From an uncultured Candidatus Saccharibacteria bacterium (lineage in GTDB: Bacteria; Patescibacteriota; Saccharimonadia; Saccharimonadales; UBA4665), in NCBI GenBank assembly GCA_963749175.1, contig CAVVLM010000006.1:15558-79557 (forward strand): 64,000 nucleotides of DNA, in the 5' to 3' direction. Positions 35,863 through 35,916 of the stretch are shown here, piece by piece; within the stretch, counting starts at the first letter, position 1, and each line of letters starts with the position of its first letter. A model generated the notes under the pieces. That model was not told where the DNA came from. It saw only the letters and a list, made by a program, of their open reading frames with translations, and made no database searches. The translations under genes and the position numbers were made by a program.

Positions 35863-35916
35863 CTAACTTTCGTCCTTTTGGACTCATCAGCATGAACACA
35901 CATTCATGAAGTGTAG
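35863..35916 (-). ncRNA. hammerhead ribozyme, type III
   Basis: Minus-strand RNA: CUACACU U|CAUGAA UGUGUG UUCAUG CUGAUGA GUCC AAAA GGAC GAA AGUUAG. Stem III has 6 bp with one bulged C. Confidence 0.8.

Follow-up and report, generated by a model that had tools for sequence, protein, structure and literature searches.

We analysed a 64,000-nt window from an uncultured Candidatus Saccharibacteria bacterium (contig CAVVLM010000006.1, positions 15,558 to 79,557; all coordinates below are those of the window). Positions 35863-35916 of its minus strand lie between two open reading frames (ORFs) that look like real genes, and hold a motif that we regard, on strong support from its sequence, as a genuine type III hammerhead ribozyme and one unexceptional member of a large class. 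We refer to it as the 35.9k copy. Read in the direction of transcription, the locus contains the following features.

36055..36303, minus strand: upstream gene for an 82-aa predicted two-helix membrane protein (in the ORF list; called gene in the source record)
35917..36052, minus strand: stable closed RNA domain filling the 3′ untranslated region (3′ UTR) of the upstream gene (inverted repeats, folding)
35917-35930 / 36039-36052, minus strand: outer stem of this domain (inverted repeat)
35950-35964 / 36017-36031, minus strand: inner hairpin of this domain (inverted repeat)
35863..35916, minus strand: type III hammerhead ribozyme (letters read; matches to RF00008 and to our covariance model R1; core, NUH and loop motifs present)
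35821..35843, minus strand: orphan 3′ end of a tRNA-Gln, 23 nt (T-loop, 3′ strand of the T-stem, 3′ strand of the acceptor stem, G73 and CCA)
35466..35750, minus strand: downstream gene for a 94-aa membrane protein (ORF list, family search)
34301-35485: gene resembling cyclopropane-fatty-acid (CFA) synthase, following the 94-aa gene

The distances given in a preliminary description of the motif hold: it lies 138 nt 3′ of ORF 36055..36303 and 112 nt 5′ of ORF 35466..35750. Direct reading of the minus-strand RNA gave these segments, in 5′ to 3′ order of their first strands.

35916-35910, minus strand: stem III, 5′ strand, CUACACU
35909, minus strand: H17, a U
Between U35909 (H17) and C35908, minus strand: predicted cleavage site, from its position in the motif
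35908-35903 / 35896-35891, minus strand: stem I, CAUGAA / UUCAUG
35902-35897, minus strand: loop 1, UGUGUG
35890-35884, minus strand: core, CUGAUGA
35883-35880 / 35875-35872, minus strand: stem II, GUCC / GGAC
35879-35876, minus strand: loop 2, AAAA
35871-35869, minus strand: GAA
35868-35863, minus strand: stem III, 3′ strand, AGUUAG

The topology, seen in the sequence and in the RF00008 and R1 alignments, is that of type III: stem III is open, stems I and II are capped by loops, and the order is 5′-III-I-core-II-GAA-III-3′. The catalytic core (C3 U4 G5 A6 N7 G8 A9 ... G12 A13 A14) is complete, with U at N7. The NUH triplet is C-U-U, in which U35910 (16.1) pairs with A35868 (15.1) and H17 is not G. 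The pairs adjacent to the core are all standard (G35883-C35872, C35908-G35891 and A35868-U35910). There are 6-7 bp in stem I and 4 bp in stem II, and stem III consists of 3 bp plus another 3 across a bulged C. As reported by Dufour et al. in 2009, docking of natural hammerheads is mediated by loop 1 of the form U-N(3-4)-Y-N and loop 2 of the form R-Nn-A, with AAAA tetraloops listed explicitly (PMC2632901). Both loops of the 35.9k copy (U-GUG-U-G and AAAA) carry these motifs and would be expected to dock. All base-level statements of the preliminary description agree with the sequence, including its comparison with a copy at 16.8 kb, in which N7 is C instead of U, one base of loop 1 is different and stem III has another sequence.

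A default Rfam scan of the whole window gave zero matches. In a permissive local scan, RF00008 matched the motif over its full length (model positions 1-54 of 54) with 30.7 bits and an E value of 9e-5, which does not reach the gathering score of 48.5 bits. Model R1, which was trained on 116 non-window sequences only and run on the window with filters off, scored the match at 35862-35914 with 65.8 bits (E ~3e-17). The 35.9k copy shares with RF00008 the topology, the 11 conserved core nucleotides and the NUH triplet, but it has a tetraloop as loop 2, for which the model expects more nucleotides, and its stems I and III have other sequences than those of the viroid and plant seeds. When 32 copies from 18 loci of the class described below were tested, only 3 passed the gathering score; the other 29 missed it, and so did all four hammerheads of the window. 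Because so many clear relatives fall below the threshold, we attribute the low score to the composition of the model's seed rather than to an absent structural feature.

The preliminary description took the 35.9k copy for the second of two, a count that has to be corrected. Four candidates, at 11.3, 16.8, 35.9 and 38.6 kb, were first located by a simple core pattern on the minus strand, and all fold on paper as type III. As the next R1 match scores 12 bits and is not a hammerhead, the window contains exactly four, all on the minus strand. The other three are as follows.

16794..16846, minus strand: sister hammerhead, R1 68.7 bits, predicted cleavage at 16841/16840
38592..38644, minus strand: sister hammerhead, R1 67.5 bits, predicted cleavage at 38639/38638
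11340..11393, minus strand: fourth, divergent hammerhead, R1 44.0 bits (E ~1e-10), predicted cleavage at 11388/11387

Relative to the 35.9k copy, stem I of the 38.6k copy carries a compensatory change (CAUGAG/CUCAUG). The 11.3k copy has GCCG/CGGC as stem II, UAAA as loop 2 and a 9-nt loop 1. A repeated mobile element carrying the ribozyme was ruled out, as the copies are alike over the ~55-nt ribozyme only and their flanks are unrelated. Each of the four lies 90-150 nt past a minus-strand ORF. The 16.8k copy follows ORF 16957-17235 (minus) and faces the convergent ORF 16184-16768 (plus); the 38.6k copy follows ORF 38735-39565 (minus) and faces plus-strand ORFs ending at 38494; the 11.3k copy follows ORF 11530-11853 (minus) and faces a convergent ABC transporter gene ending at 11323. 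Convergent genes thus meet at three of the four sites, and a co-directional downstream ORF is present at the 35.9k copy alone.

The wider class was found by scanning one genome per species for CTGANGAGTCCNNNNGGACGAAA, which gave at least 119 loci; the pattern is broad, and the taxonomic tally is indicative only. Figures for the class hold among the matches listed. According to record titles, 50 loci belong to Saccharibacteria and 31 to other members of the candidate phyla radiation (CPR)/Patescibacteria, 81 together. The remaining ones are 11 metagenome-assembled genomes labelled Gammaproteobacteria, 12 unclassified records and 15 others, including several non-folding chance matches. One Saccharibacteria genome alone supplies four loci, and 43 viral contigs of IMG/VR carry members of the class as well. 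The layout is near-universal: a short stem III strand, U-H, a stem I of 6-7 bp with a UGUGU-type loop, the core, GUCC-NNNN-GGAC, GAA and the second strand of stem III. Loop 2 is AAAA in 75 of the at least 119 loci, and the L070 copy, which is from Saccharibacteria, matches the 35.9k copy letter for letter, starting at stem I and ending with GAAA. The class appears to be a compact type III one, similar to the hammerhead of the tobacco ringspot virus satellite RNA (sTRSV), concentrated in Saccharibacteria and other CPR, with several members per genome and almost wholly missed by the Rfam gathering score. In the literature searched, we found no publication linking hammerheads with Saccharibacteria or Patescibacteria. 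For the window itself, a cyanobacterial origin was rejected because it has no HIP1 octamer, and a CPR origin is suggested by the nearest ribozyme variants among the matches listed and by weak matches of its proteins, which are unnamed singletons.

A simple fold filter was passed by 121 of 135 instances, and these form the alignment (A2) behind all family figures out of 121. Standard pairs occupy 93.1% of its stem cells, compared with 31-44% after a shift of the 3′ partners by 1-3 columns. Both sides change in 11 pairs, and the covariation score is 0.72 versus 0.06-0.11 in the shifted alignments, with strong covariation in stems I and III; these values are to be read knowing that the search pattern fixed stem II and that the stem I hairpin was a filter criterion. 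H17 is C in 88 sequences, U in 23, A in 10 and G in none, in agreement with the earlier statement that U is permitted there. Likewise, the U at N7, described as tolerated, is the base found in 101 relatives, and the other 20 have C. The search pattern left both loops unconstrained, and loop 1 has the form U-N(3-4)-Y-N in 100 of the sequences and loop 2 the form R-N2-A in 104.

The RNA preceding the 35.9k copy is itself highly structured. The 3′-UTR domain stops 1 nt ahead of the ribozyme's stem III strand, and the fold of 35909-36057 has a free energy of −44.6 kcal/mol (z −3.9), with none of 200 shuffled sequences as stable. A similar tendency is seen across the genome loci listed, in which the 70 nt before the hammerheads have a mean z of −2.19, with 45% below −2, whereas three control segments gave −0.7 to −1.0 (paired Wilcoxon p 1e-5 to 1e-7). 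The strongest upstream hairpins stop a median of 9 nt before the cut. In the positional profile, the extra structure spans −90 to −10, and the region 30-80 nt past the ribozyme is AT-rich and unstructured. Gene ends of the same loci are more structured when a hammerhead follows than elsewhere (z −2.39 vs −1.43, p 2e-4). Interpretation of the upstream hairpins as intrinsic terminators was not supported, as a U-tract (≥5 T) follows the hairpin in just 4 of 129 cases and the terminator scan was empty at the 35.9k site.

The upstream gene at 36055-36303 has a strong Shine-Dalgarno sequence (AGGAG/GGGAG) before its GTG start, and a Pfam search of the 82-aa protein returned no family. The downstream ORF at 35466-35750 has no visible Shine-Dalgarno sequence. 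Its 94-aa product belongs to a widespread, uncharacterised family of ~90-aa proteins without a Pfam entry; an exhaustive HMMER search yielded 480 cluster representatives at E≤1e-3, 87 of them at ≤1e-10. A signal scan of the minus strand between the two ORFs detected neither a sigma-70-like promoter nor an intrinsic terminator, and the lack of such signals lends slight support to read-through and co-transcription. With a crude ORF caller, 98 family sites fall between called ORFs, 46 of them between co-directional genes and 20 at convergent ends. The upstream gene is co-oriented with the ribozyme in 73 of 90 cases and the downstream gene in 63 of 91; the ribozyme starts a median of 87 nt past the upstream stop codon. 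A conserved partner gene was rejected, since no gene family recurs immediately adjacent to the ribozyme in the family loci listed.

The preliminary description proposed that cleavage separates the two cistrons. This may describe the outcome at the 35.9k site but cannot be extended to a general role, because three of the four window copies are at convergent gene ends. In the family, too, the strongest regularity is a co-oriented gene on the upstream, not the downstream, side. One might go further and propose an evolved operon, in which the ribozyme matures a bicistronic RNA into two mRNAs of separate stability, and the structured leader with its 5′-hydroxyl aids the downstream gene. The co-directional flanking genes with no promoter- or terminator-like signal between them are compatible with such an arrangement, as are the 46 co-directional sites among the 98 and the resemblance of the AT-rich stretch past the hammerheads to a translation-initiation region. 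Moreover, the hammerhead-based RiboJ raises downstream expression in E. coli (PMC6206723), and processing into single-gene mRNAs was proposed by Perreault et al. (PMC3088659). Nevertheless, we consider an evolved operon possible but unlikely. For three of the four copies in the window there is no downstream cistron to serve, the downstream ORF lacks a visible Shine-Dalgarno sequence, and two homologues of the downstream gene inspected elsewhere have other neighbours and no hammerhead upstream. In addition, the tRNA-Gln remnant stands between the ribozyme and the downstream gene, which suggests that an insertion brought the two genes together.

The fragment, noted in the preliminary description as tRNA-like, is real and corresponds exactly to the 3′ end of intact tRNA-Gln genes. 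It begins 19 nt after the ribozyme and is unique in the window. It has no 5′ partner: the preceding 5 nt (UUAAU) cannot pair with CCCUC, there is no complete cloverleaf, and ARAGORN detected no tRNA gene in the window. The closest tRNA ends among the tRNAs of the listed loci are those of tRNA-Gln. The exact 23-mer was found in six metagenome contigs, in five of which it forms the 3′ end of an intact tRNA-Gln starting with UGGAGCG. In the sixth, an unrelated contig (L127, 738-760, minus strand), it is a second orphan with the same start base, located beside small toxin-antitoxin-like ORFs, and no hammerhead accompanies it; judged from this sequence, the same core seems to be used elsewhere as an attachment (att) site.

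Integrases that target tRNA 3′ ends leave orphan 3′ ends of this kind, and the integrated element usually lies on the 5′ side of the tRNA-end fragment. The fragment at 35821..35843 is thus most likely an att remnant, and the 35.9k site a probable edge of an integrated mobile element. The ribozyme side of the fragment holds a PD-(D/E)XK nuclease, an ATPase resembling type IV secretion system (T4SS) coupling proteins and a Replic_Relax relaxase (56947-61913). Searches for an intact tRNA-Gln or an empty site returned metagenome matches that share a 23-26-nt core only, with no flank in common with the window, and the plasmid database gave no match to 33.0-39.6 kb.

The position of the ribozyme, 19 nt from the att-like core and pointing outward, with conjugation-type genes on its side, raises the question of a function in the element itself. 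The ribozyme could process transcripts that cross the recombination site, which is attP in the excised circle and attR in the integrated state, controlling integration or transfer genes or shielding the host flank. Homologues of the T4SS coupling protein occur a few kb from hammerheads in 4 other loci, the class is present in the 43 viral contigs, and bacterial hammerheads have been noted near integrase genes (PMC3088659). Still, such a function seems very improbable to us. The window and the 3.6 kb past its right end yielded neither an integrase nor a further att copy, the orphan fragment in L127 lacks a hammerhead, and the putative element does not include the two leftmost window copies. The tRNA or att adjacency is also not a family trait: a role such as tRNA processing was rejected because a tRNA lies within 200 nt at only 2 of ~137 sites, with no other tRNA-end fragment.

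The co-oriented upstream gene, the stable hairpin before the cut and the AT-rich stretch after it suggest a testable role in forming 3′ ends and insulating transcripts. With moderate confidence, we favour a reading in which self-cleavage ends the upstream mRNA past its folded domain and uncouples the read-through RNA. Transcription would place the ribozyme at the 3′ end of the message encoding the 82-aa membrane protein (minus strand, 36055-36303). After the polymerase has moved past 35863, stem III would close, loops 1 and 2 would dock, and the RNA would be cut between U35909 and C35908, as the motif predicts. The 5′ product would be the upstream mRNA, ending in the 136-nt folded domain and an 8-nt tail with a 2′,3′-cyclic phosphate, and this end should resist 3′ exonucleases. 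The 3′ product would start with a 5′-hydroxyl followed by the folded ribozyme body, so that read-through RNA (the tRNA-Gln remnant, the 94-aa gene and the CFA-synthase gene) would be disconnected from the upstream message. The element would then serve the gene in front of it, and cistron separation is what this would amount to at the 35.9k site alone; the downstream gene probably became its neighbour by chance, through the insertion. We infer the cleavage of the 35.9k copy, its co-transcription, the stabilising effects and the element boundary. As a tentative and rather doubtful extension, a strong hairpin domain without a U-tract and a type III hammerhead directly after it, cutting a few nucleotides past the hairpin, might together form a dedicated CPR module that makes mRNA 3′ ends with a protected 2′,3′-cyclic phosphate, needs no intrinsic terminator and insulates what follows; at this locus, it would seal the last gene of the tRNA-Gln element from host genes.

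Several observations weigh against the 3′-end-forming and insulating role or the setting proposed for it. One concerns stem III of the 35.9k copy, which has only three contiguous core-side pairs (A-U, G-C and U-A), the other three requiring the bulged C35913. The preliminary description, in which stem III pairs with one bulged C, was right about the six pairs of that register; the contiguous part nonetheless belongs to the weakest class of the family, shared by 2 of the 121 members. In nearest-neighbour folding, which ignores tertiary docking, the native helices account for ~4% of the ensemble, and the favoured alternative pairs AGUUAG with the CUGAU of the core. These properties would also fit a decaying or inactive copy, that is, a neutral relic with an eroded stem III and inefficient cleavage. 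The stem III of the 35.9k copy (ACACU/AGUUA) indeed looks like an eroded form of the UUACU/AGUAA common to the 16.8k and 38.6k copies. On the other hand, nothing is lost from the core positions, the G10.1-C11.1 and C1.1-G2.1 pairs, the two docking loops or stems I and II, the bulged-C register gives back six pairs, and stems I and II are present in every predicted fold. The energy model is not discriminating, since the 16.8k copy has a similarly low occupancy (6%), with 39% and 23% for the other two. A relic therefore seems improbable to us, and self-cleavage of the 35.9k copy, judged by its sequence features, is likely but not assured.

The upstream hairpin may be a mere gene-end feature unrelated to the ribozyme, because ordinary gene ends are structured as well. 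In the viral contigs (n=43), no enrichment of upstream hairpins was found (z −0.76 vs −0.45, p 0.17), and the hairpin is consequently not supported as a universal feature of the class. The family context is blurred by 39 of the 137 sites overlapping a called ORF. For the integrated element, the window and the 3.6 kb past its right end contain no integrase, second repeat or intact tRNA-Gln. Finally, no orthologous locus from another strain was found for the 35.9k copy, as the contigs L120 and L172 represent the same strain.

Thousands of bacterial hammerheads are already known, so that the 35.9k copy on its own is one more of them, and its value lies in the class to which it led. Intergenic hammerheads of types I and III have been described in bacteria since 2010-2011, frequently in clusters, at the flanks of small non-conserved ORFs and with links to phages, and the role of the prokaryotic ones is still called an open question (PMC6155905). 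Perreault et al. reported in 2011 that clustered hammerheads cut ~2-kb polycistronic transcripts in vitro, with one set active in E. coli (PMC3088659). The hammerheads in our window resemble the clusters reported by these authors and by De la Pena and Garcia-Robles in 2010 (via PMC6155905) in occurring several within tens of kb, in intergenic positions, co-oriented with small, non-conserved and mostly hypothetical genes, with links to mobile or phage-like DNA and with varying flanking genes. The tested ones, however, were largely type II or pseudoknot-bearing and came from prophages of cultivated bacteria, whereas the class described here is a loop-loop type III concentrated in CPR. In addition, most window copies are at convergent gene ends and do not have the gene flanked on both sides.

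The closest well-known relative is the sTRSV hammerhead, whose loops are UGUGCUU (loop 1) and GUGA (loop 2) (PMC2632901). Its stem II (GUCC/GGAC) is identical to that of the 35.9k copy, stem I has 6 bp in both, both loops 1 start with UGUG (UGUGCUU and UGUGUG), and both loops 2 (GUGA and AAAA) have the form R-N2-A. The sTRSV stem III, CUGUC...GAAACAG, is common to many relatives of the 35.9k copy. The settings differ, as sTRSV, a circular RNA that is a satellite of a plant virus, uses its ribozyme to resolve replication multimers, and the 35.9k copy is in bacterial DNA after a protein gene. In E. coli, the sTRSV-derived RiboJ cleaves itself, strips off the RNA upstream of it and increases the amounts of downstream transcript and protein, which means that a ribozyme of the same type can cleave in a bacterium and insulate the downstream message (PMC6206723). 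In RiboJ the accessory hairpin is 3′ of the ribozyme, whereas at the 35.9k site the large stable domain is 5′ of it.

Other features were observed around the locus. Directly 3′ of the tRNA-Gln fragment is a 10-bp hairpin (35782-35818, minus strand; 90% complementary, 17-nt loop), which might once have terminated transcription of the tRNA gene. Two toxin-antitoxin pairs lie back to back at 32879-34175, just on the ‘host’ side of the fragment, one consisting of a ribbon-helix-helix (RHH) antitoxin and a PIN toxin (plus strand) and the other of a Phd-like antitoxin and a Doc/Fic toxin (minus strand). A conserved pairing of the 94-aa gene with a CFA synthase was not seen among the homologue contigs, which are too short for a judgement. 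A contig of a related strain (L121, 97.6% identical) overlaps the window at 61.7-64 kb only, continuing beyond its right end, and diverges at about 61712, corresponding to L121 5837, inside the relaxase ORF, which marks a strain-variable region. A 49-nt similarity (84%) links window positions 44763-44811 with positions 5862-5910 of L121, in an otherwise unrelated part of that contig.

Among the family loci, a TrmB-like winged-helix regulator of ~260 aa (PF01978) is encoded near hammerheads in 17 of L001-L119, for example at L004 3350-4126, L074 3186-3974 and L023 1995-2783; it is not present in the window. In most cases the gene is on the other strand, 0.6-2 kb upstream, and divergent from a block of small genes with one to three ribozymes, with which it may form a regulated cassette.

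The ribozymes also have consequences for assembly and annotation. Near-identical repeats of ~45 nt break short-read assemblies, and two short-read contigs of sample ERR11630400, L120 (5906-5952) and L172 (1300-1349), both end inside a hammerhead. The stretch CUGAUGAGUCCAAAAGGACGAAA translates to LMSPKGRK, and this peptide appears in mechanical ORFs of several loci, such as window 35777-35923 (minus strand) and L066 6705-7529; ORF callers that read through the ribozyme thus yield spurious ORFs, which is an annotation trap. Lastly, positions 1-60 of L073 (RAYF01000220.1, ‘Bacterium D16-36’, a 532-bp scaffold) hold an sTRSV-type hammerhead, TTCCGGTCTGATGAGTCCGTGAGGACGAAACAGCCTCTACAAAT, with a tail that we take to be that of RiboJ; it is probably a synthetic-construct contamination in a genome assembly.

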